A DNA stretch of 19,748 nt from a virus (taxonomy: Duplodnaviria > Heunggongvirae > Uroviricota > Caudoviricetes): IMG/VR virus record IMGVR_UViG_647533161_000006; one strand, written 5' to 3'. The translations under genes were made by a program, and so were the position numbers. This document shows positions 1-19,049 of the stretch, piece by piece. The notes below the pieces were generated by a model, which ran no database searches, had not been told where the DNA came from, and saw only the letters and a program-made list of their open reading frames with translations. The first letter of the stretch is position 1, and each line of letters starts with the position of its first letter.

Positions 1-1143
1 CTATGCTGTTTTGATATCTACGATAACCCAGTCTTTACCACGATCATCATTGTATCGGTCGGTCATTTTTCTGGATTTATGGCCTAACAACTTTTGCGTA
101 TCCAGACCCTGTTCCCGATATAACCGTTCTGACAGAGATCGCTGCTCATGAAATGTGGGCGCAGTTCCTTGCTCCCATTTTATGCCACATTTTTCCCTGG
201 CCTTTTTAAAAGCCGTTGTCAGAGTATTTGCAGAAACCTGGTCTCCTCTGTTTGCTTGAGAGGTAGTGTGACGGTAATGGACCAGATATTTACTAACAAC
301 AGCATCCCTGCACTGAGATATAACTTCACGAAGGGTAATATTCAGAGCATCGCATTTCAGGTTAAGCGGAATAGCAAGTTTTGAACCGGTTTTTTCCTGA
401 GTAATGTGCAACATGTCGTCCCAGATATCAGAGAATTTCAAATTGCAGATATCACCTAAACGTTGTCCAGTAACAAGAGCAAGTAGCATGCCGCATTTTA
501 AATAGGGCTGCCGTCTGCTTACGCTTTCAAATATTGCCTGCCATTCGGGCAGTGACAATCTTTGGCGGTTTACTCGATTTCGCGGTTGTTTTGTTGCCTG
601 CGCTGGGTTAAATCCTGGCGGAACATGTCCTGCGTGTTGTGCTTCTTTGAAGACGTCGATCAACACCATTCTCACGACTTGCGCCATCCTGTTATGACCT
701 TCAGCCTTTACAGCATCAATTATTTCGGCAATATCAAGTGCGGTAATATCCTTGAGGTGTTGCATTCCACAATGCTCACGGAAAAGACGAATGGGTTTGC
801 CTTTTTGCCGATAGGAGTTGGGTCTTAGTTCATTATGTTGCAGCCTGTCCTCCTGGATAGAAATATATTTATCAAGCCATTCTGTCACCGTAATTTCTGA
901 GCGCCTGCCTTTCATTCTTTCCAGACGCTCATTGACGCTTAATATTTGTCGGGTACGTTGTTCAGCAATAATGGTATTTGCTTCAGTAGCAACTTGTTTT
1001 GCTTCATTCTCATCAGTTCCTAAGCTATGAAAACGACCGGATAGTGGATGTTTGTATTGCCAATATACCTTTCCGGTTCGCTTATCTAATTTGCAATATA
1101 AATTGGGTATAGAGATTTTGTGAGATCGGGGTCTAGCAGCCAT
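1..1143 (-). CDS. int: Phage tyrosine integrase, 380 aa
   Basis: Full minus-strand ORF with stop at 1-3 and ATG at 1143-1141. C-terminal HKSRKMTDRY matches the H-x-x-R...Y catalytic signature of tyrosine recombinases. Start overlaps the upstream xis stop, the usual xis-int arrangement. Not lambda Int itself (different length and sequence). Confidence 0.9.
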   Translation of the reverse strand: MAARPRSHKISIPNLYCKLDKRTGKVYWQYKHPLSGRFHSLGTDENEAKQVATEANTIIAEQRTRQILSVNERLERMKGRRSEITVTEWLDKYISIQEDRLQHNELRPNSYRQKGKPIRLFREHCGMQHLKDITALDIAEIIDAVKAEGHNRMAQVVRMVLIDVFKEAQHAGHVPPGFNPAQATKQPRNRVNRQRLSLPEWQAIFESVSRRQPYLKCGMLLALVTGQRLGDICNLKFSDIWDDMLHITQEKTGSKLAIPLNLKCDALNITLREVISQCRDAVVSKYLVHYRHTTSQANRGDQVSANTLTTAFKKAREKCGIKWEQGTAPTFHEQRSLSERLYREQGLDTQKLLGHKSRKMTDRYNDDRGKDWVIVDIKTA

Positions 1144-1369
1144 CAGCGATTATCCGTTGGAGTTTTGGGTTTGCGTTTATTGGGAGTTGCGGTTCTGCAA
1201 GCGTTCCTACAAAACGGGAATTTCGGTCAATCATCCAGTAGCGACCAACTTTTATAGCGGGTGGGGCCATCATTTTCCCTTGCGCGTATTTTTTCAGAAC
1301 TCGCTCACTTGGTGCTAAGTCCCCAAATTCTTCTTTAGCCCAGTCCTGTAAAGTGATTAGTCGAGACAT
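1133..1369 (-). CDS. xis: Excisionase-like small protein, 78 aa
   Basis: Small ORF immediately upstream of and overlapping int. ATG at 1369-1367 is preceded by a strong GAGGAGG Shine-Dalgarno on the coding strand. Function assigned by position and size. Confidence 0.7.
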   Translation of the reverse strand: MSRLITLQDWAKEEFGDLAPSERVLKKYAQGKMMAPPAIKVGRYWMIDRNSRFVGTLAEPQLPINANPKLQRIIADGC

Positions 1370-1508
1370 TTGTCCTCCTCTTAGCTGCTGAGGGAGTTTG
1401 TGACCGATATATCTGACATGATATTAAGCTCATGGCAGGTACATCTCTTGACTGGTCATAGAGATAAATTTAATGCTGAGAAATGCAGTATTGAATTTAT
1501 CAATTTTT

Positions 1509-1748
1509 CTATTTCCTGCGTATGGCACGTAACTTCTTAATGTGTTCTGCCGTTTCGATCTCTTCTGCTATCCGATCTGCATCAGCTTTATTCACAGGTT
1601 CAAAGTCATGATTAAAGCGGAACATGCTGGCGATACATGTTCTGCCTTTTCGGATGTAGTGAACTTTGTTGTAGGTAGAACGCAGGATTTTGCAGGGAGT
1701 GCCGTGGTGGTCGACGTACCAGGTGTTAGGAAAAATGATTCTGAGCAT
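1509..1748 (-). CDS. Hypothetical early-left (b-region) protein, 79 aa
   Basis: ATG-initiated ORF co-oriented with the pL operon; no family recognised from the translation. Confidence 0.45.
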   Translation of the reverse strand: MLRIIFPNTWYVDHHGTPCKILRSTYNKVHYIRKGRTCIASMFRFNHDFEPVNKADADRIAEEIETAEHIKKLRAIRRK

Positions 1749-1795
1749 TTTTACACCTCAGTTGGACGATGTTGAAATTTGCTGCTTTGAGGCCA

Positions 1796-2014
1796 TCACA
1801 ATCCCCATTGTTTGTTCTTAAGTTCGATCTCCTCCTGGCAACTTGCACAAGTCCGACAACCCTGAACGACCAGGCGTCTTCGCTCATCTATCGGATCGCC
1901 ACACTCACAACAATGAGTGGCAGATACAGTCTGGTAGTTCAGACGACGCATTTTTATTGCTGTATTGCGCTGTAATTCTTCGATTTCTGATGCTGAATCA
2001 ATGATGTCTGCCAT
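1796..2014 (-). CDS. TraR/DksA-family C4 zinc-finger protein, 72 aa
   Basis: Translation contains CxxC...(17)...CxxC (CCECGDPIDERRRLVVQGCRTCASC), typical of TraR/DksA-type zinc fingers that bind the RNA polymerase secondary channel. Size and position match TraR-like genes of lambdoid phages. Confidence 0.75.
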   Translation of the reverse strand: MADIIDSASEIEELQRNTAIKMRRLNYQTVSATHCCECGDPIDERRRLVVQGCRTCASCQEEIELKNKQWGL

Positions 2015-2063
2015 CTTCCATTAATCCCTGAATTGTTGGTTAATACGCTTGAGGGTGAATGCG

Positions 2064-2091
2064 AATAATAAAAAAGGAGCCTGTAGCTCCC
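2064..2091 (-). terminator. Intrinsic terminator-like hairpin on the minus strand
   Basis: Minus strand reads GGAGCTACAGGCTCC (5-bp stem) followed by TTTTTTATTATT; lies between the 93-aa ORF and the TraR-like gene. Confidence 0.45.
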
Positions 2092-2112
2092 TGATGATTT
2101 TGCTTTTCATGT

Positions 2113-2394
2113 TCATCGCTCCTTAAAGACGCCGTTTAACATGCCGATCGCCAGGCTTAAATGAGTCGGTGTGAATCCCATCAGCGTTACCGTTTCGCGG
2201 TGCTTCTTCAGTACGCTACGGCAAATGTCATCGACGTTTTTATCCGGAAACTGCTGTCTGGCTTTTTTGATTTCAGAGTTAGCTTGACGGGCAATGCTGC
2301 GAAGGGCGTTTTTCTGCTGAGGTGTCACTGAACAAGCCCCATGCCGGAAAGCATAAGCACACAGAATATGAAGCCCGCCGCCAGAAAAATGCAT
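2113..2394 (-). CDS. Hypothetical early-left protein (about 93 aa from ATG at 2394; ORF extends to a TTG at 2412)
   Basis: Open frame co-oriented with neighbours; start uncertain (no clear SD for either candidate); no recognised domain. Confidence 0.4.
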   Translation of the reverse strand: MHFSGGGLHILCAYAFRHGACSVTPQQKNALRSIARQANSEIKKARQQFPDKNVDDICRSVLKKHRETVTLMGFTPTHLSLAIGMLNGVFKER

Positions 2395-2404
2395 TCTGTT
2401 GTTG

Positions 2405-2596
2405 TCATGCAAGCTCTCTCTCGTTTGCCTCTGCTTTCGCCGCCATCATTTCCAGCTTTTGTGAAAGGGATGCGGCTAACGTATGAAATTCTTCGTCTGT
2501 TTCTGCTGGTATTGGCACAAACCTGACTCCAATTTGAGCAAGGCTATGTGCCATCTCAATGCTCGTTCTTAACTCAACAGGAGATGCTTTGTGCAT
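2405..2596 (-). CDS. Small early-left protein, 63 aa (lambda orf63-like position)
   Basis: ATG at 2596-2594 with a GAGGGG SD upstream; position and size match the small orfs that lie downstream of exo in lambda. Confidence 0.55.
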   Translation of the reverse strand: MHKASPVELRTSIEMAHSLAQIGVRFVPIPAETDEEFHTLAASLSQKLEMMAAKAEANERELA

Positions 2597-2751
2597 ACAG
2601 CCCCTCGTTTATTATTTATCTCCTCAGCCAGCCGCTGGGCTTTCAGTGGATTTTGGATAACAGAAAGGCCGGGAAATACCCAGCCTCGCTTTGTAACGGA
2701 GTAGACGAAAGTGATCGCGCCTACCCGGATATTATCGTGAGGATGCGTCAT
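2569..2751 (-). CDS. Small early-left protein, 60 aa (lambda orf60a-like)
   Basis: ATG at 2751-2749 overlaps the exo stop (2748-2750) in an ATGA arrangement, as for orf60a in lambda; the ORF-track entry extends 2 codons upstream. Confidence 0.55.
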
Positions 2752-3357
2752 CGCCATTGCTCCCCAAATACAAAACCAATTTCAGCCAGTGCCTCGTCCA
2801 TTTTTTCGATGAACTCCGGCACCATCTCGTCAAAACTCGCCATGTACTTTTCATCCCGCTCAACCACGACATAATGCAGTCCTTCACGCTTCATACGCGG
2901 GTCATAGTTGGCAAAGTACCAGGCATCTTTTCGTGTCACCCACATGCTGTACTGCACCTGGGCCATGTAAGCCGACTTTATGGCCTCGAAACCACCGAGC
3001 CGGAACTTCATGAAATCCCGGGAGGTAAACGGGCATTTCAGCTCAAGGCCATTGCCGTCACTGCATAAACCATCGGGAGAGCAGGCGGTGCGCATACTTT
3101 CGTCGCGATAGATGATCGGGGATTCAGTAACATTCACGCCGGAAGTGAATTCAAACAGAGTTCTGGCGTCGTTCTCGTACTGTTTTCCCCAGGCCAGCGC
3201 CTTAGCATTAACTTCCGGAGCCACACCGGTGCAAACCTCAGCCAGCAGGGTGTGGAAGTAGGACATTTTCATGTCAGGCCACTTCTTTCCTGAGCGGGGC
3301 TTTGCTATCACGTTGTGAACTTGTGAAGCGGTGATGACGCCGAGCCGTAATTTGTGC
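2748..3357 (-). CDS. exo: Lambda exonuclease (Red alpha), C-terminal about 202 codons; 5' end lost in the N run
   Basis: Translation (…[41 protein letters not shown]…GFVFGEQWR) is near-identical to lambda Exo as I recall it. Stop at 2748-2750. Confidence 0.92.
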
Positions 3358-3926
3358 NNNNNNNNNNNNNNNNNNNNNNNNNNNNNNNNNNNNNNNNNNN
3401 NNNNNNNNNNNNNNNNNNNNNNNNNNNNNNNNNNNNNNNNNNNNNNNNNNNNNNNNNNNNNNNNNNNNNNNNNNNNNNNNNNNNNNNNNNNNNNNNNNNN
3501 NNNNNNNNNNNNNNNNNNNNNNNNNNNNNNNNNNNNNNNNNNNNNNNNNNNNNNNNNNNNNNNNNNNNNNNNNNNNNNNNNNNNNNNNNNNNNNNNNNNN
3601 NNNNNNNNNNNNNNNNNNNNNNNNNNNNNNNNNNNNNNNNNNNNNNNNNNNNNNNNNNNNNNNNNNNNNNNNNNNNNNNNNNNNNNNNNNNNNNNNNNNN
3701 NNNNNNNNNNNNNNNNNNNNNNNNNNNNNNNNNNNNNNNNNNNNNNNNNNNNNNNNNNNNNNNNNNNNNNNNNNNNNNNNNNNNNNNNNNNNNNNNNNNN
3801 NNNNNNNNNNNNNNNNNNNNNNNNNNNNNNNNNNNNNNNNNNNNNNNNNNNNNNNNNNNNNNNNNNNNNNNNNNNNNNNNNNNNNNNNNNNNNNNNNNNN
3901 NNNNNNNNNNNNNNNNNNNNNNNNNN
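3358..3926. other. Run of 569 N (assembly gap or masked sequence)
   Basis: Directly visible in the sequence; interrupts the 5' end of exo and most of bet. Confidence 1.
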
Positions 3927-4039
3927 CACCCTTTAAATGCCGTCTGGCGAAGAGTGGTGATCAGTTCCTGTGGGTCGACAGAATCCATGCCGACACGTTC
4001 AGCCAGCTTCCCTGCCAGCGTTGCGAGTGCTGTACTCAT
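3927..4039 (-). CDS. bet: Lambda Bet (Red beta) ssDNA-annealing protein, N-terminal 37 codons only; remainder in the N run
   Basis: ATG at 4039-4037; MSTALATLAGKLAERVGMDSVDPQELITTLRQTAFKG matches the lambda Bet N-terminus. Confidence 0.88.
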
Positions 4040-4044
4040 CCGTT

Positions 4045-4461
4045 TTATACCTCTGAATCAATATCAACCTGGTGGTGAGCAATGGTTTCAACCATGTACC
4101 GGATGTGTTCTGCCATGCGCTCCTGAAACTCAACATCGTCATCAAACGCACGGGTAATGGCTTTTTTGCTGGCCCCGTGGCGTTGCAAATGATCGATGCA
4201 TAGCGATTCAAACAGGTGCTGGGGCAGGCCTTTTTCCATGTCGTCTGCCAGTTCTGCCTCTTTCTCTTCACGGGCGATCTGCTGGTAGTGACGCGCCCAG
4301 CTCTGAGCCTCAAGACGATCCTGAATGTAATAAGCGTTCATGGCTGAACTCCTGAAATAGCTGTGAAAATATCGCCCGCGAAATGCCGGGCTGATTAGGA
4401 AAACAGGAAAGGGGGTTAGTGAATGCTTTTGCTTGATCTCAGTTTCAGTATTAATATCCAT
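4045..4461 (-). CDS. gam: Gam (RecBCD inhibitor), 138 aa
   Basis: Translation [61 protein letters not shown]… is near-identical to lambda Gam, including the internal Met used for the short GamS form. Confidence 0.93.
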
Positions 4462-4559
4462 TTTTTATAAGCGTCGACGGCCTCACGAAACATCTTTTCA
4501 TCGCCAATAAAAGTGGCGATAGTGAATTTAGTCTGGATAGCCATAAGTGTTTGATCCAT
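4416..4559 (-). CDS. kil: Kil (host cell-division inhibitor), 47 aa
   Basis: Internal ATG at 4559-4557 gives [47 protein letters not shown], matching lambda Kil; overlaps the gam start as in lambda. Confidence 0.8.
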
Positions 4560-4692
4560 TTTTTGGGACTCCTGGCTGATTAAGTATGTCGATAAGGCGT
4601 TTCCATCCGTCACGTAATTTACGGGTGATTCGTTCAAGTAAAGATTCGGAAGGGCAGCCAGCAACAGGCCACCCTGCAATGGCATATTGCAT
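4528..4692 (-). CDS. cIII: CIII (FtsH/HflB inhibitor protecting CII), 54 aa
   Basis: ATG at 4692-4690 and an ending …NTYGYPD* were translated by hand (MQYAIAG…); overlaps kil in another frame as in lambda. Not in the ORF track because it is under 60 aa. Confidence 0.8.
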   Translation of the reverse strand: MQYAIAGWPVAGCPSESLLERITRKLRDGWKRLIDILNQPGVPKNGSNTYGYPD

Positions 4693-4764
4693 GGTGTGCT
4701 CCTTATTTATACATAACGAAAAACGCCTCGAGTGAAGCGTTATTGGTATGCGGTAACGCCGCGC

Positions 4765-5133
4765 TCAGGCGGCTTTGATAGTCATATCATCTGAATCAAA
4801 TATTCCTGATGTATCGATATCGGTAATTCTTATTCCTTCGCTACCATCCATTGGAGGCCATCCTTCCTGACCATTTCCATCATTCCAGTCGAACTCACAC
4901 ACAACACCATATGCATTTAAGTCGCTTGAAATTGCTATAAGCAGAGCATGTTGCGCCAGCATGATTAATACAGCATTTAATACAGAGCCGTGTTTATTGA
5001 GTCGGTATTCAGAGTCTGACCAGAAATTATTAATCTGGTGAAGTTTTTCCTCTGTCATTACGTCATGGTCGATTTCAATTTCTATTGATGCTTTCCAGTC
5101 GTAATCAATGATGTATTTTTTGATGTTTGACAT
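4765..5133 (-). CDS. ea10: Ea10 early protein, 122 aa
   Basis: Translation matches lambda Ea10 (MSNIKKYIIDYDWKASIEIEIDHDVMTEEKLHQINNFWSDSEY…). Confidence 0.8.
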   Translation of the reverse strand: MSNIKKYIIDYDWKASIEIEIDHDVMTEEKLHQINNFWSDSEYRLNKHGSVLNAVLIMLAQHALLIAISSDLNAYGVVCEFDWNDGNGQEGWPPMDGSEGIRITDIDTSGIFDSDDMTIKAA

Positions 5134-5150
5134 CTATTCATATCCTCACA

Positions 5151-5180
5151 GATAAAAAATCGCCCTCACATTGGAGGGCA
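5151..5180 (-). terminator. Intrinsic terminator on the minus strand (tL-type)
   Basis: Minus strand reads GCCCTC-CAATGT-GAGGGC followed by GATTTTTTATC; sits upstream of ea10 within the leftward operon, so it would be read through under N antitermination. Confidence 0.5.
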
Positions 5181-5393
5181 AAGAAGATTTCCAATAATCA
5201 GAACAAGTCGGCTCCTGTTTAGTTACGAGCGACATTGCTCAGTGTATTCACTCGTTGGAATGAATACACAGTGCAGTGTTTATTAGTATGCCTGTCTTTT
5301 AACCACATCAGGCTCGGTGGTTCTCGTGTACCCCTACAGCGAGAAATCGGATAAACTCTATTCACCCCTACAGAGAGCAAAAGAGAAACGCCG

Positions 5394-5975
5394 ATGAACA
5401 ACTCATGGTGGCAGGAACTAATGCATTTTTTCCTGCAAGGAATGACACTTAAACAGTTGATTCATATGCTAATCATCCTGATCATATTGATTATTGTTAT
5501 GCCTGTAAGCGTAAAAGAATGGATAAACCTGCATAATCCAGAAATCCTTCCTCATTACTGGATGTATTACATCCTGTTGTTTTGCGTTAGCTATGTGCTT
5601 AACGGCGTTGTTAATTCCGCTTATCACGCTGTGACTGTAAGAATTGAGATATTCGCTGCTCAGAAGCGCAAATCTAAAGAAGAGAAATACGTGCAAGATT
5701 TGTTTGATTCGTTAACTCTTGGAGAAAGAGCGTATTTGGCATTCGCTGTAGCCGCTAATAACCAGCTAAAGACAGAAAAGGGAAGCCCTGAAGCAATCTC
5801 ATTGCTCGAAAAAGGGCTTCTTATTCGGGTACCTTCTGCTACTGGATATCCTGAAATCGACCGTTTTGTTATCCCGGAACGCTATAGAAATGAGTGCTAC
5901 ATTAGGTTTGCTGGGAAGAAAGACAGTCTTATGGATGAACTTATCGCTCAGGATAAGCATGGCAAAAACAAGTAA
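5394..5975 (+). CDS. sieB: Superinfection exclusion protein B (SieB)-like inner-membrane protein, 193 aa as drawn
   Basis: Plus-strand ORF convergent with N, with a strongly hydrophobic N-terminal region (LIHMLIILIILIIVMPVSV…YWMYYILLFCVSYVLNGVV); recognised as SieB-like from memory of lambda SieB. The true start may be an internal Met. Confidence 0.7.
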   Translation: MNNSWWQELMHFFLQGMTLKQLIHMLIILIILIIVMPVSVKEWINLHNPEILPHYWMYYILLFCVSYVLNGVVNSAYHAVTVRIEIFAAQKRKSKEEKYVQDLFDSLTLGERAYLAFAVAANNQLKTEKGSPEAISLLEKGLLIRVPSATGYPEIDRFVIPERYRNECYIRFAGKKDSLMDELIAQDKHGKNK

Positions 5976-5991
5976 TTAGCAAATGAATTTA

Positions 5992-6300
5992 TCATCTCGC
6001 CGTCAGTTGTTTTGATTTCCGGTAGCCTGCCGCGTAAATAGCTACGTTTGGCAGGCAAACACTTCCACTGCATTCATCTACTTTCTTGCAGCGAAGGCTT
6101 CCGAGTGATATTGCTTTTTCAGAAAGGCTTAACCGCTTTCTCGGGTCTTCCTGAACAGGTTCCTCACTGTCTGTGCCGAAGATCGAATCGATGATGTTGC
6201 AGATGGAATCACGCTCGATGGCCAGCTTTCTGCGCCGCTCATGACGGCGAGTTTTGGCATTTCCTGCAAATGTTGATTTTCCGTACACGATTACCGTCAT
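5992..6300 (-). CDS. N: N-type transcription antiterminator, P22 gene 24-like, 102 aa from ATG at 6300
   Basis: Arginine-rich motif GNAKTRRHERRRKLAIER near the N-terminus (MTVIVYGKSTFAGNAKTRRHERRRKLAIERD…) matches the P22-type N ARM. The ORF-track entry starts 28 codons upstream at a non-ATG start. Confidence 0.82.
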   Translation of the reverse strand: MTVIVYGKSTFAGNAKTRRHERRRKLAIERDSICNIIDSIFGTDSEEPVQEDPRKRLSLSEKAISLGSLRCKKVDECSGSVCLPNVAIYAAGYRKSKQLTAR

Positions 6301-6418
6301 GATGTTTTCCTCATGTGAAATGGCTTTGGTGGTGATGCGCCAGATGCTGATCTTCTGGTTGCTGTCGTTACTGCTGCAATTCACATCACCCCAAACCCAT
6401 CTCGTTTGGTATCTGTTC

Positions 6419-6453
6419 GCGCTTTGTCAGCGCATCATCGAAGTTAAAGAGCC
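6419..6453 (-). promoter_or_regulatory. nutL: nutL (boxA plus boxB), P22 type
   Basis: Minus strand reads GGCTCTTTAAC (boxA-like) then GCGCTGACAAAGCGC (boxB hairpin, from 6419-6433), the P22-type nutL boxB, about 120 nt upstream of the N start. Confidence 0.72.
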
Positions 6454-6489
6454 TGCCAATCTGTTCCGTTTGGCTGCCAGCGTCCTGCT

Positions 6490-6545
6490 GATGGCGATTA
6501 TAATGAACCAATAGTTCGATATTATCAAGAACTATAAGTACGAAT
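6490..6545 (-). promoter_or_regulatory. Putative pL promoter and oL operator region
   Basis: Minus strand carries TATAAT (plus 6497-6502) and a TTGATA -35-like hexamer (plus 6523-6528) at a non-ideal spacing. Partial dyads (GAACTATAAGTAC, GAACCAATAGTTC) share the AGTAC/ACT..AGT motif seen in the cI-cro operator region. Exact operators not resolved. Confidence 0.35.
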
Positions 6546-6710
6546 TGTTTGTGGTTCATTAACTTAATGAGATATGTTTTTGATATGTAAAGGAATTTAT
6601 TTTTGTAAAGATTGAAGATTGGTCAGTAGGAGAGAAAGAATTGTTTGCTGGCGTGTTAGTTCGTGGGTTAGCACATGTGCGGATGTTAAATAAGGTAGAC
6701 GATCGTGAGG

Positions 6711-6736
6711 AAAAGAAAAACCGGCGCTGAGGCCGG
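6711..6736 (-). terminator. Intrinsic terminator closing the cI/gene-X transcription unit
   Basis: Minus strand reads CCGGCC-TCAGCG-CCGG (GC-rich hairpin) followed by TTTTTCTTTT, a few nt after the gene-X stop codon (6743-6745) and before the putative pL. Confidence 0.55.
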
Positions 6737-6742
6737 GTATAA

Positions 6743-7642
6743 TTATTTGATTATTTCTTTTATAAAGACTTCTTTCGGTTGGTATTTTTTATCTGATGAT
6801 TTGAGCTGGTACGTTATTGTTATATCAGCACGTACAGAAAATTTACCTGCAAAATCTGATGGGTTTACGTTGGGGCCAAGAACCATATTTACTCTTCGAT
6901 CTATTAATCCAGGGATAACAGCAGCCCAACCTTTCTCTGGATTGTCGAGGTCTAATGCACGGATTTCAACATCAACATCAAAATGATCCTGAGTATATGA
7001 CTCTGGTGTGAAGACAACTTCAGTTGGGGCTTTTTTAATGGTTTCAGCGGGAATGGTCACTGTACCACCCCCTGTACCTATGACCATCGTAGATCCTTCG
7101 TCTGCCCTAGCTGGGGCAAGCGTCTTAATGGAACTTTTGGCAAGAGTCTTCTTATTGGTTACCGTGCTTTCTATGATTGCTTGAAGACGGTCAGGTGAAA
7201 TATTAGCCTCACCGGCACCAATATTGATGATTGTATTGTTATTTGCTTCAAAGTGGGAGGTGTTGCTTGGAGCCATAGCCTTAGTTGCTAGAACTAAGCC
7301 ATATCCAACCAGACCAATAACAACAGCACCAACGAGAGCGTTTCTCATTTTCCCATTTCCGATCTTTGCATGAGCGCCAGCAAGAAACTTGTCCATTTCT
7401 TCTTGGCTACCAAAGAGGAGTTTAATAACAATATCTTCATAAAGGCTTCCTGCTTCTAATCGCGCAACATGCACCGATATATCAAGGATATTAGCCCCTG
7501 TCAGTTCCTGCAAAACACCTTCTGATTGTTTTGCGATGGCCTCCCACCCTTGAAGGGAGGTAATCACATCTTTGATGCTTACAGGTTCTTTAGTTGAATA
7601 ATATATGTTTTCGGTAAAGGTTAAAGATAATTCTTGGGACAT
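6743..7642 (-). CDS. Uncharacterised single-pass membrane protein, 299 aa, in the rexAB-equivalent slot
   Basis: Long ATG-initiated ORF (ATG 7642-7640) with a GAGGG SD upstream, co-oriented with and downstream of cI. One hydrophobic segment (NALVGAVVIGLVGYGLVLATKAMA) separates an N-terminal ~100-aa domain from a Gly/Thr-rich ~175-aa C-terminal domain. Visibly AT-rich compared with flanking phage genes; no family recognised. Confidence 0.7.
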   Translation of the reverse strand: MSQELSLTFTENIYYSTKEPVSIKDVITSLQGWEAIAKQSEGVLQELTGANILDISVHVARLEAGSLYEDIVIKLLFGSQEEMDKFLAGAHAKIGNGKMRNALVGAVVIGLVGYGLVLATKAMAPSNTSHFEANNNTIINIGAGEANISPDRLQAIIESTVTNKKTLAKSSIKTLAPARADEGSTMVIGTGGGTVTIPAETIKKAPTEVVFTPESYTQDHFDVDVEIRALDLDNPEKGWAAVIPGLIDRRVNMVLGPNVNPSDFAGKFSVRADITITYQLKSSDKKYQPKEVFIKEIIK

Positions 7643-7771
7643 CCGAGCCCTCGCTGTTTCTTTCGATTTGCTGTGTTAAGCTAATATTTTAATATCCATG
7701 TTTCTGTTTGCTTGCAGTGTGTTTCTCACCACCATCCAAACGTACTGGTTACTAGCTATGTGATGATGAAG

Positions 7772-8479
7772 TCATGAACTTTTCAGCCATTCCCTGGCCT
7801 CGATGTCATCTAGGTGGCGAGATTGCTTCAGAATACCAGCTACATACTCCACCTTTGCTACTTGATGATAAGGCAACGTTATTGGCCTGTGGTCTTGGTT
7901 GATGCTTGTAAATTGGTATTCTCCGTCTCTGTCATAGCCAAGAACCTTGATCATGTTGTGCCCTTCAATGGTTCTGACAAACACCTCATCACCTGGGAAT
8001 ACTTTGGTGTTAGGCTCAATGAGTACATATTCTCCTGATTTTATTCTGGGCCACATGCTGTCTCCTTTTACACGAAGACCAAAGGCATCTGGATCATCGC
8101 TATAAATCTTGAGCCACCCATCGCGCTCTTCGGTCATCTCGATGGCACCATCAACACCAAGAATTGCCTCACCAACCACGCGCACTAACCCTTTTTTTAA
8201 TTTGCCAACAATTGAAAAAGTATCTTCATCATTCGCTCCATTTAACGAAGTGCCGTGCTGAAGCCAAACAACATCAACGTTTAGAAATTTCGCAAGCGCA
8301 TTCATTTTTTCCTGGCGTGGTAAAGACTCAGCATTAAACCATTTGCTAACGCCTTTGGACGAAAGAGAAAGGGCACGGGCTATGGCCATTCCCCTACCAT
8401 GTTCATCAAGACCAGCTTCTTTACAGGCTTGCGCTAGCCGCTGGGCGAATTCTTTGCGCACTTTTTCATTCTGAACCAT
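7772..8479 (-). CDS. cI: CI-like prophage repressor (N-terminal HTH, C-terminal S24 LexA-like autopeptidase), 235 aa
   Basis: C-terminal domain contains GDSMWP (Ser nucleophile motif of S24 peptidases) and a downstream Lys; N-terminal region is HTH-like. Divergent from cro across a short operator region. Not lambda CI or P22 C2 by sequence. Confidence 0.85.
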   Translation of the reverse strand: MVQNEKVRKEFAQRLAQACKEAGLDEHGRGMAIARALSLSSKGVSKWFNAESLPRQEKMNALAKFLNVDVVWLQHGTSLNGANDEDTFSIVGKLKKGLVRVVGEAILGVDGAIEMTEERDGWLKIYSDDPDAFGLRVKGDSMWPRIKSGEYVLIEPNTKVFPGDEVFVRTIEGHNMIKVLGYDRDGEYQFTSINQDHRPITLPYHQVAKVEYVAGILKQSRHLDDIEAREWLKSS

Positions 8480-8557
8480 GAGTACGATACTAAAGCACTT
8501 GCAAAAACTTTCAGTTCAACCATAATGCGTACTGAAAGTACGAAAAAGGACATTCCT
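8480..8557. promoter_or_regulatory. oR / pR / pRM divergent control region
   Basis: 78-bp cI-cro intergenic with a plus-strand -35 TTGCAA (8499-8504), 16-bp spacer, -10 CATAAT (8521-8526). Dyads CGTACTGAAAGTACG (8528-8542) and AACTTTCAGTT (8506-8516) overlap the promoter as candidate operators. pRM not resolved. Confidence 0.5.
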
Positions 8558-8785
8558 ATGCAAAATCTTGATGAGCCGATTAAAGGTGTCGGCATCCCTG
8601 AAGTTGCGAAGGCTTGTGGAGTTAGCGAAAGGGCTGTCTATAAGTGGCTCAAAAACGGCTTCCTCCCTAAGACTGAGTTTTTTGGGAAAACGAAATACGC
8701 ATCAAAAATCGAAGAGATTTCTGGTGGCAAATATCAAGCAAGCGAAATGCTTGAAATAAGCAAAAAGAACCTTCTGGCAGCATAA
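8558..8785 (+). CDS. cro: Cro-like HTH regulator, 75 aa from ATG 8558
   Basis: First rightward gene, opposite cI; AAAAAGGA SD precedes ATG 8558; HTH-like segment GIPEVAKACGVSERAVYKWLKNG. The ORF-track start at 8525 lies inside the operator region and is less likely. Confidence 0.7.
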   Translation: MQNLDEPIKGVGIPEVAKACGVSERAVYKWLKNGFLPKTEFFGKTKYASKIEEISGGKYQASEMLEISKKNLLAA

Positions 8786-8792
8786 GTAACAC

Positions 8793-8827
8793 CGCTCTTT
8801 ATCAATCTGCACCGCCGACAACGCGGT
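8793..8827 (+). promoter_or_regulatory. nutR: nutR (boxA CGCTCTTTA plus boxB ACCGCCGACAACGCGGT), P22 type
   Basis: boxA at 8793-8801 and boxB hairpin at 8811-8827, just downstream of the cro stop; boxB matches the P22-type nutR. Confidence 0.7.
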
Positions 8828-8891
8828 AACTAATTAAGAACTCATCGAAAGATGCGTATTAGTGATTATTTACCTATGGAAATAGTAAGAA

Positions 8892-9191
8892 ATGGAACAA
8901 ACAAATTACAGCAAACTATCACAGCGCGACGTTGATCGCGCAGAAACAGATTTACTTATCAACCTGTCAACGCTTACTCAGCGCGGTCTGGCAAAGATGA
9001 TTGGCTGTCATGAATCGAAGATAAGCAGAACAGACTGGAGGTTTATAGCTTCGGTCTTGTGTGCTTTTGGCATGGCATCAGACATCAGTCCGATTAGCAG
9101 AGCTTTTAAGTATGCGCTTGATGAAATCACCAATAAAAAACGCCCGGTGTGCAAGACCGAGCGTTCTGAACAAATCCAGATGGAGTTCTGA
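8892..9191 (+). CDS. cII: CII transcriptional activator (lysogeny establishment), 99 aa
   Basis: C-terminus …TNKKRPVCKTERSEQIQMEF matches the lambda CII C-terminus; the N-terminal half is divergent (mosaic). Confidence 0.8.
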   Translation: MEQTNYSKLSQRDVDRAETDLLINLSTLTQRGLAKMIGCHESKISRTDWRFIASVLCAFGMASDISPISRAFKYALDEITNKKRPVCKTERSEQIQMEF

Positions 9192-9213
9192 GGTCATTAC
9201 TGGATCTATCAAC
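9131..9213 (-). ncRNA. oop: oop-like antisense RNA (overlaps the cII 3' end)
   Basis: Minus strand across the cII end/O start reads …CTGGATTTGTTCAGAACGCTCGGTCTTGCACACCGGGCGTTTTTTATTG, closely resembling lambda oop RNA and its hairpin plus U-tract terminator, though the stem is altered. Coordinates inferred from the lambda arrangement. Confidence 0.45.
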
Positions 9214-9223
9214 AGGAGTCATT

Positions 9224-10123
9224 ATGACAAATACAGCAAAAATACTCAACTTCGGCAGAGGTAACTTTGCCGGACAGGAGCGTAATGTGGCAGATCTCGA
9301 TGATGGTTACGCCAGACTATCAAATATGCTGCTTGAGGCTTATTCGGGCGCAGATCTGACCAAGCGACAGTTTAAAGTGCTGCTTGCCATTCTGCGTAAA
9401 ACCTATGGGTGGAATAAACCAATGGACAGAATCACCGATTCTCAACTTAGCGAGATTACAAAGTTACCTGTCAAACGGTGCAATGAAGCCAAGTTAGAAC
9501 TCGTCAGAATGAATATTATCAAGCAGCAAGGCGGCATGTTTGGACCAAACAAAAACATCTCAGAATGGTGCATCCCTCAAAACGAGGGAAAATCCCCTAA
9601 AACGAGGGATAAAACATCCCTCAAATTGGGGGATTGCTATCCCTCAAAACAGGGGGACACAAAAGACACTATTACAAAAGAAAAAAGAAAAGATTATTCG
9701 TCCGAGAATTCTGGCGAATCCTCTGACCAGCCAGAAAACGATCTTTCTGTGGTTAAACCGGATGCTGCAATTCAGAGCGGCAGTAAGTGGGGAACAGCAG
9801 AAGACCTGACCGCCGCAGAGTGGATGTTTGACATGGTGAAGACCATCGCGCCATCAGCCAGAAAACCGAATTTTGCTGGGTGGGCTAACGATATCCGCCT
9901 GATGCGTGAACGTGACGGACGTAACCACCGCGATATGTGTGTGCTTTTCCGCTGGGCCTGCCAGGACAACTTCTGGTCCGGTAACGTGCTGAGTCCGGCC
10001 AAACTCCGCGACAAGTGGACCCAGCTCGAAATCAACCGTAACAAGCAACAGGCTGGCGTGACAGCCGGAAAACCAAAACTCGACCTGACAAACACTGACT
10101 GGATTTACGGGGTGGATCTATGA
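9224..10123 (+). CDS. O: Replication initiator O, 299 aa
   Basis: Translation is essentially lambda O throughout (MTNTAKILNFGRGNFAGQERNVADLDDGYARLSNMLLEAY…TNTDWIYGVDL). Confidence 0.95.
   Translation: MTNTAKILNFGRGNFAGQERNVADLDDGYARLSNMLLEAYSGADLTKRQFKVLLAILRKTYGWNKPMDRITDSQLSEITKLPVKRCNEAKLELVRMNIIKQQGGMFGPNKNISEWCIPQNEGKSPKTRDKTSLKLGDCYPSKQGDTKDTITKEKRKDYSSENSGESSDQPENDLSVVKPDAAIQSGSKWGTAEDLTAAEWMFDMVKTIAPSARKPNFAGWANDIRLMRERDGRNHRDMCVLFRWACQDNFWSGNVLSPAKLRDKWTQLEINRNKQQAGVTAGKPKLDLTNTDWIYGVDL
9562..9690 (+). repeat. ori-lambda: four iterons plus adjacent AT-rich segment inside O
   Basis: Repeated units ATCCCTCAAAACGAGGGA / AATCCCCTAAAACGAGGGA / ACATCCCTCAAATTGGGGGA / TTGCTATCCCTCAAAACAGGGGGA, followed by the A-rich stretch AAAAGACACTATTACAAAAGAAAAAAGAAAAG. 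Confidence 0.85.
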
Positions 10124-10821
10124 AAAACATCGCCGCACAGATGGTTAACTTTGACCGTGAGCAGATGCGTCGGATCGCCAACAACATGCCGGAACAGTAC
10201 GACGAAAAGCCACAGGTACAGCAGGTAGCGCAGATCATCAACGGTGTGTTCAGCCAGTTACTGGCAACTTTCCCGGCGAGCCTGGCTAACCGTGACCAGA
10301 ACGAACTGAACGAAATCCGCCGCCAGTGGGTTCTGGCTTTCCGGGAAAACGGGATCACCACAATGGAACAGGTTAACGCAGGAATGCGCGTAGCCCGTCG
10401 GCAGAATCGACCATTTCTGCCATCACCCGGGCAGTTTGTTGCATGGTGCCGGGAAGAAGCATCCGTTATCGCCGGACTGCCAAACGTCAGCGAGCTGGTT
10501 GATATGGTTTACGAGTATTGCCGGAAGCGAGGCCTGTATCCGGATGCGGAGTCTTATCCGTGGAAATCAAATGCGCACTACTGGCTGGTTACCAACCTGT
10601 ATCAGAACATGCGGGCCAATGCGCTTACTGATGCGGAATTACGCCGTAAGGCCGCAGATGAGCTTGTCCATATGACTGCGAGAATTAACCGTGGTGAGGC
10701 GATCCCTGAACCAGTAAAACAACTTCCTGTCATGGGCGGTAGACCTCTAAATCGTGCACAGGCTCTGGCGAAGATCGCAGAAATCAAAGCTAAGTTCGGA
10801 CTGAAAGGAGCAAGTGTATGA
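10120..10821 (+). CDS. P: Replication protein P (DnaB helicase loader), 233 aa
   Basis: Translation is near-identical to lambda P; start overlaps the O stop (ATGA). Confidence 0.95.
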   Translation: MKNIAAQMVNFDREQMRRIANNMPEQYDEKPQVQQVAQIINGVFSQLLATFPASLANRDQNELNEIRRQWVLAFRENGITTMEQVNAGMRVARRQNRPFLPSPGQFVAWCREEASVIAGLPNVSELVDMVYEYCRKRGLYPDAESYPWKSNAHYWLVTNLYQNMRANALTDAELRRKAADELVHMTARINRGEAIPEPVKQLPVMGGRPLNRAQALAKIAEIKAKFGLKGASV

Positions 10822-11108
10822 CGGGCAAAGAGGCAATTATTCATTACCTGGGGACGCATAATAGCTTCTGTGCGCCGGACGTTGCCGCGCTAACAGGCGC
10901 AACAGTAACCAGCATAAATCAGGCCGCGGCTAAAATGGCACGGGCAGGTCTTCTGGTTATCGAAGGTAAGGTCTGGCGAACGGTGTATTACCGGTTTGCT
11001 ACCAGGGAAGAACGGGAAGGAAAGATGAGCACGAACCTGATTTTCAAGGAGTGTCGCCAGAGTGCCGCGATGAAACGGGTATTGGCGGTATATGGAGTTA
11101 AAAGATGA
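10818..11108 (+). CDS. ren: Ren (protects against Rex exclusion), 96 aa
   Basis: Translation matches lambda Ren; start overlaps the P stop. Confidence 0.88.
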   Translation: MTGKEAIIHYLGTHNSFCAPDVAALTGATVTSINQAAAKMARAGLLVIEGKVWRTVYYRFATREEREGKMSTNLIFKECRQSAAMKRVLAVYGVKR

Positions 11109-11132
11109 CCATCTACATTACTGAGCTAATAA

Positions 11133-11165
11133 CAGGCCTGCTGGTAATCGCAGGCCTTTTTATTT
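11133..11165 (+). terminator. Intrinsic terminator (tR2-equivalent) between ren and ninB
   Basis: AGGCCTGC-TGGTAATC-GCAGGCCT hairpin followed by TTTTTATTT on the plus strand. Confidence 0.65.
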
Positions 11166-11181
11166 GGGGGAGAGGGAAGTC

Positions 11182-11622
11182 ATGAAAAAACTAACCTTTG
11201 AAATTCGATCTCCAGCACATCAGCAAAACGCTATTCACGCAGTACAGCAAATCCTTCCAGACCCAACCAAACCAATCGTAGTAACCATTCAGGAACGCAA
11301 CCGCAGCTTAGACCAAAACAGGAAGCTATGGGCCTGCTTAGGTGACGTCTCTCGTCAGGTTGAATGGCATGGTCGCTGGCTGGATGCAGAAAGCTGGAAG
11401 TGTGTGTTTACCGCAGCATTAAAGCAGCAGGATGTTGTTCCTAACCTTGCCGGGAATGGCTTTGTGGTAATAGGCCAGTCAACCAGCAGGATGCGTGTAG
11501 GCGAATTTGCGGAGCTATTAGAGCTTATACAGGCATTCGGTACAGAGCGTGGCGTTAAGTGGTCAGACGAAGCGAGACTGGCTCTGGAGTGGAAAGCGAG
11601 ATGGGGAGATCGGGCTGCATGA
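11182..11622 (+). CDS. ninB: NinB (Orf family recombination mediator), 146 aa
   Basis: From ATG 11182 (MKKLTFEIRSPAHQQNAIHAVQQILPDP…) the translation matches lambda NinB; the ORF-track start is 6 codons upstream. Confidence 0.85.
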   Translation: MKKLTFEIRSPAHQQNAIHAVQQILPDPTKPIVVTIQERNRSLDQNRKLWACLGDVSRQVEWHGRWLDAESWKCVFTAALKQQDVVPNLAGNGFVVIGQSTSRMRVGEFAELLELIQAFGTERGVKWSDEARLALEWKARWGDRAA

Positions 11623-12146
11623 CTATCAAATCAAATACGCCAGCACACGACAAGGACTGCTGGCAAACGCCGCTTTGGCTTTTTGATGCACTGGATATTG
11701 AGTTTGGATTCTGGCTGGATTCGGCAGCGAGCGACAAAAATGCTCTGTGTGCTCACTGGCTAACTGAGGCCGACGACGCGCTCAATTCTGAGTGGGTAAG
11801 CCACGGTGCAATCTGGAATAACCCACCGTACAGCAATATCAGGCCGTGGGTGGAAAAAGCCGCTGAGCAGTGCATACAACAGCGACAGACGGTAGTTATG
11901 CTTGTGCCAGAGGATATGTCAGTCGGATGGTTCAGCAAGGCTCTGGAGAGTGTCGACGAAGTTCGCATTATCACTGATGGACGGATTAATTTTATCGAAC
12001 CATCGACAGGGCTGGAGAAGAAGGGAAACAGCAAAGGCTCCATGCTGCTGATTTGGCGACCGTTCATCAGTCCTCGACGGATGTTTACTACCGTATCCAA
12101 AGCGGCATTGATGGCGATCGGGCAGGGCGTCAGGAGGGCGGCATGA
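11619..12146 (+). CDS. Phage DNA N6-adenine methyltransferase (Dam-family, orphan), about 175 aa
   Basis: ATG 11619 overlaps the ninB stop (ATGA). Translation contains the NPPY catalytic motif (…[15 protein letters not shown]…) characteristic of N6-adenine methyltransferases. Occupies the nin position where lambda has ninC/ninD. No adjacent restriction gene. Confidence 0.8.
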
Positions 12147-12319
12147 GGCGACAGCGACGAAGTTTCACCGACATCATCTGCGAAAACTGCAAATACCTTC
12201 CAACGAAACGCTCCAGAAATAAACGCAAGCCAATCCCAAAAGAATCTGACGTAAAAACCTTCAATTACACAGCTCACCTGTGGGATATCCGGTGGCTAAG
12301 ATATCGTGCGAGGAAATGA
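12143..12319 (+). CDS. ninE: NinE, 58 aa
   Basis: Internal ATG 12143 overlapping the methyltransferase stop gives [58 protein letters not shown], recognised as NinE-like. Confidence 0.7.
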
Positions 12320-12663
12320 CAATGGATTATTCACAGTTAAGTGATTTTGAAATTAACAGAATGGTAGGAGACATAATTTTTAAAGGCCTTTGGGCAAGTA
12401 AACCGGAAACATCAGGGAATAACACCAACAAATGGTATTACGGAAATGCTGATACAACTTTTGAGCCATTAAATCATTTGCCTGACTACTGCAATGATCC
12501 GAGCGCTTCATGGCCGATTATTGAGAAATACAGGATTTCTATCTTAGACCAGTTAACTGAATGGTGTGTGGATGCAAAAGGCGTAAGCCCAATATTTGAT
12601 ACCAGACCTCTCCGCGCCGCCATTATTGTCTTTCTCCTGATGCAGGAGGCCAATAATGCTTAG
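12316..12663 (+). CDS. Hypothetical nin-region protein, about 114-116 aa
   Basis: ATG at 12316 overlaps the ninE stop; an alternative ATG at 12322 has an AGGAA SD 6 nt upstream. No family recognised with confidence. Confidence 0.5.
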
Positions 12664-12850
12664 CCCATCTCAATCCCTTCAATACCTGAAAGGAAGCATA
12701 GAGCGGGCTTCAATGTGCACAGAGTGGATTCTATCTAGGTTTAGCGCATACAGAAGATTGCCGGTAAAGGGCATGCCAAGCAAGTCGATGCTGCATATGC
12801 AAAAGAATGCGCGCGGGAAGGTATGGCGAGAACGCAGGTTATCTGGCTGA
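12656..12850 (+). CDS. Small nin-region ORF, 64 aa (possible NinF-like N-terminus; may be a fusion or decayed gene)
   Basis: ATG-initiated ORF overlapping the previous gene's end; only the first ~18 residues look NinF-like to me (from memory, uncertain). Terminates 20 nt before rusA in a different frame from the remnant listed next. Confidence 0.35.
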
Positions 12851-12873
12851 AAGAGGGGGTAATTAAGGCGTGA
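12745..12873 (+). pseudogene. Start-less 42-codon reading frame running into the rusA start (possible 3' remnant of a ybcO-like gene)
   Basis: Hand translation of the frame ending at TGA 12871-12873: [42 protein letters not shown]. It has an upstream in-frame stop at 12742-12744 and no plausible start; the attribution to ybcO/DUF1364 is from memory and tentative. Confidence 0.3.
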
Positions 12874-13232
12874 ATACTTACCACATCACACTACCCTGGC
12901 CTCCGAGCAATAATCGCTATTATCGCCATAATCGCGGGCGCACGCACGTCAGCGCAGAGGGGCAGGCATACCGCGATAACGTCGCCCGAATCATTAAAAA
13001 CGCAATGCTGGATATCGGCCTGGCGATGCCTGTGAAAATCCGCATTGAGTGCCACATGCCGGATCGCCGTCGCCGTGACCTGGATAATCTGCAAAAAGCC
13101 GCTTTTGACGCACTCACCAAAGCAGGTTTCTGGCTGGATGATGCTCAGGTCGTTGATTACCGCGTTGTGAAGATGCCTGTTACCAAAGGTGGGAGGCTGG
13201 AATTGACCATCACCGAAATGGGGAATGAATGA
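12870..13232 (+). CDS. rusA: RusA Holliday-junction resolvase, 120 aa (GTG start)
   Basis: Translation [95 protein letters not shown]… matches RusA of E. coli lambdoid prophages. Confidence 0.92.
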
Positions 13233-13369
13233 TGTTTGAGTTTTATATGGCAGAACGTCTTCGCCACCGCTGGGTGCGTCTGCGCTTATATCGTTTCCCC
13301 GGTTCTGTTTTGACCGATTACCGAATACTGAAGAATTACGCCAAAACACTGACAGGAGCAGGAGTATGA
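13229..13369 (+). CDS. ylcG: YlcG-like small protein, 46 aa
   Basis: Hand-translated [46 protein letters not shown]; start overlaps the rusA stop; rusA-ylcG-Q order as in DLP12-type prophages. Confidence 0.55.
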
Positions 13370-13454
13370 AGTCAGAGATAACAATCAACTAATACTGTTT
13401 TGCTGATTTTTGCTTGTAATTGGCGTTCTGGTCTGATTTTTGTGGAGTAAGTTG

Positions 13455-13832
13455 ATGCGTGATATTCAGATGGTTCTTGAGCGTTGGGGAGCGTGGGCGG
13501 CTAATAATCATGAAGATGTGACCTGGTCGTCCATTGCCGCCGGTTTTAAGGGATTAATTCCTTCAAAAGTAAAATCTCGCCCGCAATGTTGTGACGATGA
13601 CGCGATGATCATTTGCGGGTGCATGGCCCGTCTGAAAAATAACAACAGCGATTTGCATGATTTGTTAGTGGACTATTATGTCGGCGGCATGACTTTTATG
13701 GCGCTTGCGCGTAAGCATGGTAGATCTGATTGTTGGATTGGCAGGATGCTCCAAAAAGCTGAGGGCGTAGTGGAGGGCATGCTGATGGTGTTGGATCTCA
13801 GATTGGAGATGGATGCTGATTGTTTGAGATAA
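13455..13832 (+). CDS. Q: Late-gene antiterminator Q (phage 82 / DLP12 QuuD type), 125 aa
   Basis: From ATG 13455 (GGAG SD 8 nt upstream): [76 protein letters not shown]… recognised as 82-type Q. The ORF-track entry starts at an upstream TTG. Confidence 0.82.
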
Positions 13833-13930
13833 TTAAAGGAAAAGTTGCTGTCTGGTTATCATTAGACTAATGTTTCAAATGTTAGAATCGCAACGTAGTT
13901 ATGATCATATAACAGCTTGTTCCCTGATTT
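13833..13930 (+). promoter_or_regulatory. Expected PR' late promoter and qut site region (not resolved to bases)
   Basis: Immediately downstream of Q and upstream of a plus-strand terminator, as in lambdoid late-control regions; candidate -10 TAGAAT at 13883-13888 but no well-spaced -35. Confidence 0.35.
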
Positions 13931-13959
13931 AGCCAGCCTCCCCAAAGGCTGGTTTTTTT
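13931..13959 (+). terminator. Intrinsic terminator (tR'-equivalent) downstream of Q
   Basis: AGCCAGCC-TCCCCAAA-GGCTGG hairpin followed by TTTTTTT on the plus strand. Confidence 0.6.
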
Positions 13960-13987
13960 CTAATAAGTATCAATCCGGTTAGGTATT

Positions 13988-14512
13988 TTATTGTTTGACC
14001 CATAATAGTTCATTGACATTGAATCCCAATTTTTGAGCAGTACGCACATAGTCTGCTTTTACATTATCTGGAATAGTTGGAGTCCGTGCCAGAATCCATA
14101 GGTATTCTCTGTTCGGACCACTGACAAGAGCATACTTATACTCATCATCCAGTTTGATTACATTATAGCCACCATAGAAGGGGCCAAAAAACGAAACCTT
14201 CAACGCTGCAGTTGTATTATCTCCTGTAAAGTATGCTTTACCTTCGCTCTCGCTCCATTTGTTTTTCGTTGGGTCATATCCACGATTAAGTACACTAATC
14301 CCTCCGTCGTTCCGTTTCCCATAAGTGGCGCTGACCTGTTCCAGACCACGTTCAAATCGGTTCTCAAGCCGAGCTATTTCATACCATTTTCCGAGGTAGC
14401 GGTTGGTGTCAAAATTTGTAATCGGCTGCACACCTTTAGGTGGTGTCGGGGCCTTACATGCTATCAGAGTGAAAGAGAGTGCAATGCCAGTCAACACAGG
14501 CCATAACTTCAT
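13988..14512 (-). CDS. Blc-like outer-membrane lipocalin lipoprotein, 174 aa (moron)
   Basis: Signal peptide with lipobox (…FTLIAC) then lipocalin-type sequence (NFDTNRYLGKWYEIARLENRFERGLEQV…KVSFFGPFYGGYNVI…YLWILARTP) closely resembling bacterial lipocalin Blc; opposite strand to the late operon. Confidence 0.85.
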   Translation of the reverse strand: MKLWPVLTGIALSFTLIACKAPTPPKGVQPITNFDTNRYLGKWYEIARLENRFERGLEQVSATYGKRNDGGISVLNRGYDPTKNKWSESEGKAYFTGDNTTAALKVSFFGPFYGGYNVIKLDDEYKYALVSGPNREYLWILARTPTIPDNVKADYVRTAQKLGFNVNELLWVKQ

Positions 14513-14704
14513 AATATATCCTGTACTTTTGATAGTTGAGAGTAAGTATTAAAGATAGATGATTACTACCGATCACCTAAAGAACTTTCCTACTATATTA
14601 GGAATAGTCCATAACAAAAAAATTGTCAGTGATGACGGCAGAAAGGCAGTTTAGGTCGTGTACTACACTGTTAACCTGTTAATGAATTAGTCAAGGGGTA
14701 GGCA

Positions 14705-15664: not shown

Positions 15665-15982
15665 GCGTTTGGAATGCACCAACAAGATGATTTTCTCCTT
15701 AGAGAATGTTTACAATCGTAAAAACTTCACTATGATATCTATAGTTGTACAGTTTGTAAAAAAATTCGGTTCATGCTTAAGGTAATGTTAATATGTTAAT
15801 TAATGATTAATAATCAAGCAAGCCAAAAATAGTTCTGTTTAATCTAGTATTACATAAATATTTTAAAGAAAATATCAAAGTTCATGATGATATAATGAGA
15901 TTTTTCTCATTGAAAATATGGCAATTTTAATATTTCCACCTATACTTACTTAACTCAAATCTAATTATGTCAGGTGGATGGT

Positions 15983-16714: not shown

Positions 16715-16776
16715 CGTGATGCGTTTTGATGATTTTGTAATTTTCATATTTGATGATTATATGATGCTTTCAGCTA

Positions 16777-16807
16777 CGCCAGAATAATCGCTGGCGTTTT
16801 TCTTTTC
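16777..16807 (+). terminator. Intrinsic terminator downstream of the AraC-like gene
   Basis: CGCCAG-AATAATCG-CTGGCG hairpin followed by TTTTTCTTTT on the plus strand. Confidence 0.55.
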
Positions 16808-16881
16808 TAATGTAACTTCTGTATCTTTCCCTCTTTCATTCCAAACCGTGTACACCATCCGTTATTCGCGGAGGTGAGGCT

Positions 16882-18052: not shown

Positions 18053-18083
18053 AGCTGCCCATATCGATGGGCAACTCATGCAA

Positions 18084-18931: not shown

Positions 18932-19049
18932 GAGGTTGCCCCGTATTCAGTGTCGCTGATTTGTATTGTCTGAAGTTGTTTTTACGTTAAGTTGATGCAG
19001 ATCAATTAATACGATACCTGCGTCATAATTGATTATTTGACGTGGTTTG

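Follow-up and report, generated by a model that had tools for sequence, protein, structure and literature searches.

The locus considered here raises a simple question: does a short minus-strand reading frame in the early-left region of a lambdoid phage encode a regulator of the host RNA polymerase (RNAP), and if so, to which branch of the known regulators does it belong? We analysed it within the window, by which we mean the whole stretch of 19,748 nt of the virus record IMGVR_UViG_647533161_000006. Over positions 1-19134 the window shares 100% identity with a set of lambdoid coliphages that have been sequenced, among them Lambda_ev110 and 1H12 (genus Jouyvirus). In the ORF listing, an ATG-to-TGA frame of 72 codons occupies exactly positions 1796-2014 on the minus strand, stop codon included, and its product is MADIIDSASEIEELQRNTAIKMRRLNYQTVSATHCCECGDPIDERRRLVVQGCRTCASCQEEIELKNKQWGL. 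An earlier note on this DNA had described the frame as a 72-aa C4 zinc-finger ORF, a description that is confirmed by the ORF listing and by matches to Pfam PF01258 and PHROG 54. These three sources, together with its identity to the lambda protein Orf73, define the frame as the gene of an Orf73 homologue of the TraR family.

The Pfam family PF01258 (zf-dskA_traR) was found at residues 33-64 with 36.2 bits (E 5.9e-9), the cut-off (gathering score) being 24.9 bits, and PHROG 54, which is named 'DksA-like zinc-finger protein', covers residues 1-70 of the 72-aa protein with an E-value of 1.4e-25. Both matches are far beyond chance. The best sequence matches in the PDB are the F-plasmid TraR entries 5w1s and 6n57 (residues 1-69, E 2e-5), and a search of the PDB with the family profile retrieved YbiI and TraR again. 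The NCBIfam equivalog model for F TraR, NF010268, is clearly missed (27.8 bits versus a cut-off of 108), so that the 72-aa protein has to be regarded as a homologue within the TraR family, to which lambda Orf73 and P2 Orf82 also belong, and not as TraR itself.

The profile scores also bear on a different reading, in which the gene encodes a zinc-ribbon protein of the DksA/TraR superfamily that is like the chromosomal YbiI, or has some other partner, and does not regulate RNAP. Over the zinc-ribbon part, the family profile indeed scores YbiI (PDB entry 2kgo, labelled 'uncharacterized') slightly above TraR, and with 52.9 bits the 72-aa protein stays under the curated cut-off of 59.7 bits of the TraR-subfamily model TIGR02419 (C4_traR_proteo), with which F TraR scores 80.7 bits. 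However, the match to YbiI is confined to residues 30-66, whereas the match to TraR runs over the full length and takes in the DxxDxA tip. The experimentally validated lambda Orf73 likewise falls under the TIGR02419 cut-off (54.7 bits); the shortfall of the 72-aa protein is therefore uninformative, the cut-off excludes this subfamily, and we rejected the low score as evidence against membership. Since the protein is moreover 89% identical to lambda Orf73, which binds RNAP, it seems very unlikely that the window gene has a role apart from RNAP.

The functional elements of the family could be placed along the gene by alignment with TraR and DksA. Codons 3-8 (DIIDSA; 1991..2008, minus strand) form the acidic DxxDxA tip with D3, D6 and A8. 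The C4 zinc ribbon, which is also covered by the Pfam match, comprises codons 35-59 (1838..1912, minus strand) and displays a CxxC-17-CxxC pattern made up of C35, C38, C56 and C59; an arginine pair, R46/R47, and the extra cysteines C36 and C53 fall in the same stretch. A C-terminal helix with a conserved acidic residue, E64, is placed at codons 57-70 (1805..1846, minus strand) by AlphaFold models and alignments.

The window protein, lambda Orf73, F TraR and E. coli DksA were aligned, with the TraR sequence taken from the PDB alignments and DksA translated from NC_000913. The invariant columns of this four-way alignment include D3, D6, A8, C35, C38, C56, C59, R46 and E64. The tip residues D3, D6 and A8 correspond to D3, D6 and A8 of TraR and to D71, D74 and A76 of DksA. 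R46 and R47 pair with TraR R48 (rim helices) and R49 (beta-prime Si3), and E64 is the counterpart of the conserved acidic residue in the C-terminal helix, in the region of contact with beta Si1. The zinc finger and the acidic tip, whose conservation the earlier note had proposed as the test of its assignment, are thus both in place, with the three tip residues and the four cysteines unchanged in all four proteins. In a subfamily alignment of 46 full-length homologues (60-93% identity), A8, C35, C38 and E64 are invariant, and D3, D6, C56, C59, R46 and R47 are at least 90% conserved; as for the extra cysteines, C53 is nearly invariant in this set and C36 is variable. Judged by these alignments, the 72-aa protein keeps every residue with a mapped function in the family.

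In the PDB, F TraR ranks first by sequence and, with weak scores, also by predicted structure. The two proteins are alike in length, in the position of the DxxDxA tip at residues 3-8, in the arginine pair and in having an acidic residue near the C-terminus, and the predicted order of helix, C4 ribbon and helix resembles that of TraR. They differ in that their identity is only about 32%, that the window protein has two extra cysteines relative to TraR, and that the TraR gene belongs to the conjugative tra operon of F, whereas the window gene belongs to a phage early operon. E. coli DksA shares the C4 zinc finger and the DxxDxA tip with the window protein, but it is a protein of 151 aa that carries the tip on a coiled coil and needs ppGpp for full activity. 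TraR-family proteins are half its size, work independently of ppGpp and have only one helix, which bears the tip at its N-terminal end (PMC9239242).

Modelling of the 72-aa protein with AlphaFold from the single sequence gave a pLDDT of 58.3, and this model was discarded for the fold search because the value was too low. With the alignment of the 46 homologues the pLDDT was 66.7, and the model consists of a helix at residues 5-23, the zinc ribbon and a helix at residues 57-70; the latter helix is present in both models. The rise to only 66.7 is probably explained by the similarity of the retrieved homologues, none of which falls under 60% identity. A Foldseek search of the PDB with this second model placed the TraR-RNAP complex (6n57_M) first, with a probability of 0.98, a weak E-value of 9e-3 and a TM-score of 0.41, and then, with weak scores, YbiI, DksA in the rrnB P1 complex and DksA2. 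The length of 72 aa and the predicted order of helix, ribbon and helix agree with the size (about 70-75 aa) and the element order of the TraR family. For lambda Orf73, a published AlphaFold model has a pLDDT of 93 and an RMSD of 4 A to bound TraR, which is due to different helix angles, and the four hallmarks have been modelled as well (PMC8614690).

Lambda Orf73 has 73 aa, one more than the window protein, and 63 of the 71 aligned residues are identical (89%). Common to both are the DxxDxA tip, the C4 finger, both extra cysteines, an ExxRL motif and E64. The replacements fall on residues 27, 29 and 30 and on 6 of the last 11 residues (62-72), and there are none in residues 1-26 or 31-61. The same partition is visible at the codon level: in codons 1-26 and 31-61 all five codon differences between the two genes are synonymous, and the nine replacements all lie within codons 27-30 and 62-72. 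That the core differs from lambda by synonymous changes only points to purifying selection on the functional core, and the ORF at 1796-2014 is a real gene under selection.

A frame of this kind might also be a chance or decaying ORF without function, a view for which its small size is the only argument. However, a tblastn search found the 72-aa protein in 471 phage records, in 360 of which the coverage is 80% or more, and most complete E. coli genomes (3387 of 5426) contain a match to the 1051-nt region in which the gene lies. The substitutions in the core relative to lambda are all synonymous, as described above, and translation of the lambda orthologue is backed by ribosome-profiling evidence, as cited in PMC9239242 and PMC8614690. 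The conservation pattern effectively refutes the notion of a chance ORF, whose probability we regard as negligible. The ORFs that overlap the gene at 1769-1975 (plus strand), 1843-2004 (plus strand) and 1726-1887 (minus strand) had no PHROG family match. An Rfam scan of the whole window gave the cIII thermoregulator as its sole match, and no RNA family at or close to the gene; the 72-aa protein had no match among the defence-system models of PADLOC.

In lambda itself, a 73-codon ORF without annotation lies in the gap between ea22 and orf61 (about 30392-30613, complement) and corresponds to the orf73 of the literature. The RefSeq lambda record NC_001416 has no CDS feature for orf73 in spite of its experimental characterisation.

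Purified lambda Orf73 binds E. coli RNAP at the site that is also used by DksA, and competes with DksA (PMC9239242). No ppGpp is needed for its inhibition of rpsT P2 and of rrnB P1, for which the IC50 is about 50 nM; the variants D3N and D6N inhibit much more weakly, and a dksA-null strain is complemented by Orf73 (PMC9239242). When made from pL, Orf73 slows host growth, and an intact orf73 raises the phage yield after induction 3-4 fold (PMC9239242). The lambda lytic promoters that were tested were unchanged by Orf73, and the host promoters that were tested were activated weakly or not at all, so the lambda orthologue acts as an inhibitor of promoters, in contrast to TraR, which also activates (PMC9239242). 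The earlier note had proposed a TraR/DksA-like protein that binds in the secondary channel of RNAP and reprogrammes host transcription, and the experiments on the 89%-identical lambda protein, among them the in vitro transcription on rrnB P1 that the note had suggested as a check, support this by analogy (PMC9239242). The gene is very probably the orthologue of lambda orf73 and encodes a ppGpp-independent RNAP regulator of the TraR branch, the RNAP activity being transferred from the lambda protein. We infer that the window allele would behave in the same way as lambda Orf73.

The differences from lambda nevertheless cluster in one functional element: the last 11 residues, 6 of which differ from lambda Orf73, are part of the helix that touches beta Si1 in TraR. 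Here the window protein ends in EEIELKNKQWGL, which is near the majority form of the subfamily (EEIELKNKQ.G.), and lambda Orf73 ends in EDLELISKQRGSK, a minority form among the 46 homologues. It could be imagined that the divergent C-terminal helix and the near-invariant C53 together alter the contacts with beta Si1 and beta-prime Si3. If so, the promoter spectrum might be unlike that of lambda Orf73, including for instance TraR-like activation, or zinc coordination might be altered. We consider this improbable, and nothing in the analysis points to it.

The surroundings of the gene were compared with the leftward operon of lambda, and the order of the minus-strand genes was read from the ORF listing, the profile searches and the 1H12 annotation. 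A LexA-type, cI-like repressor (7772-8479, minus strand) is recognizable by its Peptidase_S24 and HTH domains. Between the repressor and pL, at the place of lambda rexA/rexB, we observed a 299-aa ORF (6743-7642, minus strand), for which no significant Pfam or PADLOC match was obtained and after which a terminator-like hairpin is found at 6736..6721. This ORF is a candidate for a lysogen-expressed exclusion or defence gene. A promoter scan indicated a candidate pL, TTGATA-17-CATTAT, at 6500..6528 (minus strand) by consensus match only, and a repeat search revealed a perfect 10-nt inverted repeat flanking it (6501-6510 / 6552-6561), a candidate operator. A boxB-like hairpin, GCGCTGACAAAGCGC, was read from the sequence at 6419..6433 (minus strand) as a candidate nutL; we take it to be a boxB of the P22 type, by comparison with the P22 boxB sequence. 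The N antiterminator gene (5992..6300, minus strand) is of P22 type, with a Pfam match to PF25694 (N_peptide) of 139.7 bits, an N-like annotation in 1H12 and the arginine-rich motif GNAKTRRHERRRKLAIER. The phage combines lambda-like recombination genes and a lambda-like exo-xis region with a P22-like N/nut module.

The operon continues with a cIII homologue (4528-4692, minus strand), at the start of which lies the lambda cIII thermoregulator RNA (Rfam RF01804, 88.5 bits; 4647-4705, minus strand), and kil, gam, bet and exo are located between cIII and the orf60a block, all on the minus strand. A run of 569 N (3358-3926) covers exo in its 5' part and bet in its 3' part. Past this run, the coordinates are offset by about 171 nt from those of 1H12, to which the window is identical, and the mask must therefore be shorter than the sequence it replaced.

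The block directly upstream of the 72-aa gene is in lambda order and on the minus strand, with DUF1317/orf60a at 2569-2757, DUF1382/orf63 at 2405-2596 and an intact orf61 homologue of 99 aa at 2113-2412 (PHROG 303). The corresponding lambda frame is split into orf61 (61 aa) and a 60-aa ORF without annotation, and the lambda gene therefore looks frameshifted; the truncation of lambda Orf61 has already been recorded (PMC8614690). Between the 72-aa gene and xis (1133-1369, minus strand) lies a DUF4222 gene of 79 aa (1509-1748, minus strand; PHROG 285), of which 1H12 annotates only a shorter version (1509-1625), and int occupies positions 1-1143 on the minus strand. The 72-aa gene has the same map position as lambda orf73, downstream of the orf60a-orf63-orf61 block and before the xis/int end of the leftward operon. 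It shares its strand with N, cIII, gam, bet and exo, which lie upstream of it, and with xis and int, which lie downstream, and by this gene order the placement in the early-left (pL) operon given in the earlier note is anatomically correct.

In the 106 nt that precede the start codon, there are only three base differences between lambda and the window. Downstream, the stop codon of lambda orf73 overlaps the GTG start of ea22, whereas in the window phage a 47-nt spacer is followed by the DUF4222 gene; ea22 and ea8.5 of lambda are absent. The C-terminal tail of the 72-aa gene contains the mosaic joint to the genes downstream.

In the interval between the orf61 homologue and the 72-aa gene, a pattern scan picked up a candidate terminator-like hairpin followed by TTTTTT at 2074..2092 (minus strand, in the direction of leftward transcription). 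The hairpin reads AGGGAGCT-ACA-GGCTCCTT and then TTTTTAT, lies 60 nt upstream of the start codon of the 72-aa gene and is identical in lambda, including the T-run. When the 63 nt around it (2050-2112) are folded as RNA, the predicted energy is -10.8 kcal/mol, which is weak when compared with shuffled sequences (z -1.9). The hairpin is contained in a 31-aa ORF (2021-2116) that appears as a hypothetical protein in the 1H12 annotation. We could match no named lambda terminator to the hairpin at 2092..2074, and the papers retrieved on tL3 came without coordinates. In the lambda fragment carried by pKD46, the tL3 terminator is located just after exo. A second hairpin, at 2687..2665, suits that position better, and the hairpin at 2092..2074 was therefore left unnamed.

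Taken together with the lambda experiments, the gene order suggests how the protein may act. Upon loss of the repressor or upon infection, leftward transcription from pL would be made resistant to termination by the phage N protein and would reach the exo-xis region, from the transcript of which the 72-aa protein would be produced. Its N-terminal helix is expected to enter the secondary channel of host RNAP, bringing D3, D6 and A8 near the active site, while the zinc ribbon with R46 and R47 would lie on the rim helices and beta-prime Si3, and the C-terminal helix with E64 would contact beta Si1. The altered kinetics of open complexes could then shut down the promoters of rRNA and ribosomal-protein genes, so that host resources would shift from ribosome synthesis to the production of phage.

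It is possible that the same RNAP mechanism has a different output, namely a bias towards lysogeny and/or a block of host replication initiation (the 'bin' function of the exo-xis region) instead of a boost to lytic growth. The published phenotypes do conflict, a pro-lysogenic effect with reduced yield (Zdrojewska 2019, as cited in PMC8614690) standing against an increased yield (PMC9239242). According to the summary in PMC8614690, deletions in lambda and in Stx phages associate the loss of orf73 with lower host survival and a lower efficiency of lysogenisation, and PMC9239242 notes that four genes, orf73, ea22, ea8.5 and orf55, had been jointly implicated in inhibiting the initiation of host DNA replication. 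However, clean D3A/D6A point mutants and an in-frame deletion of orf73 lower the yield after induction 3-4 fold, and dnaA mRNA is barely affected by lambda orf73 (PMC9239242). Since ea22 and ea8.5 are lacking in the window phage, a joint 'bin' function would also need other partners here. A lysogenic or replication-blocking output thus appears unlikely, although it deserves more weight than the other alternatives discussed above. The pro-lysogenic and replication-block claims concern the physiological read-out and not the molecular mechanism, and leave the assignment as a TraR-branch RNAP regulator as it stands.

For this regulator, the protein family, the mechanism and the role in lambda have already been established by biochemistry, by cryo-EM of TraR-RNAP complexes and by phage genetics. 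The family, the mechanism and the map position of the 72-aa gene are already known. Existing annotation points in the same direction: in E. coli genomes PGAP names the protein 'TraR/DksA family transcriptional regulator', and phage records carry either 'DksA-like zinc-finger protein' (for example 1H12) or 'TraR/YbiI family protein'. What the assignment chiefly provides is the right functional annotation in the exo-xis region of the phage.

A further observation concerns the interval between the Q-like antiterminator and the lysis genes. At 14160-15836 of the 1H12 record, which corresponds to about 14000-15700 in the window, the 1H12 annotation contains a homologue of the lipocalin Blc and a YbgA-like protein, which look as if they were cargo derived from the host.
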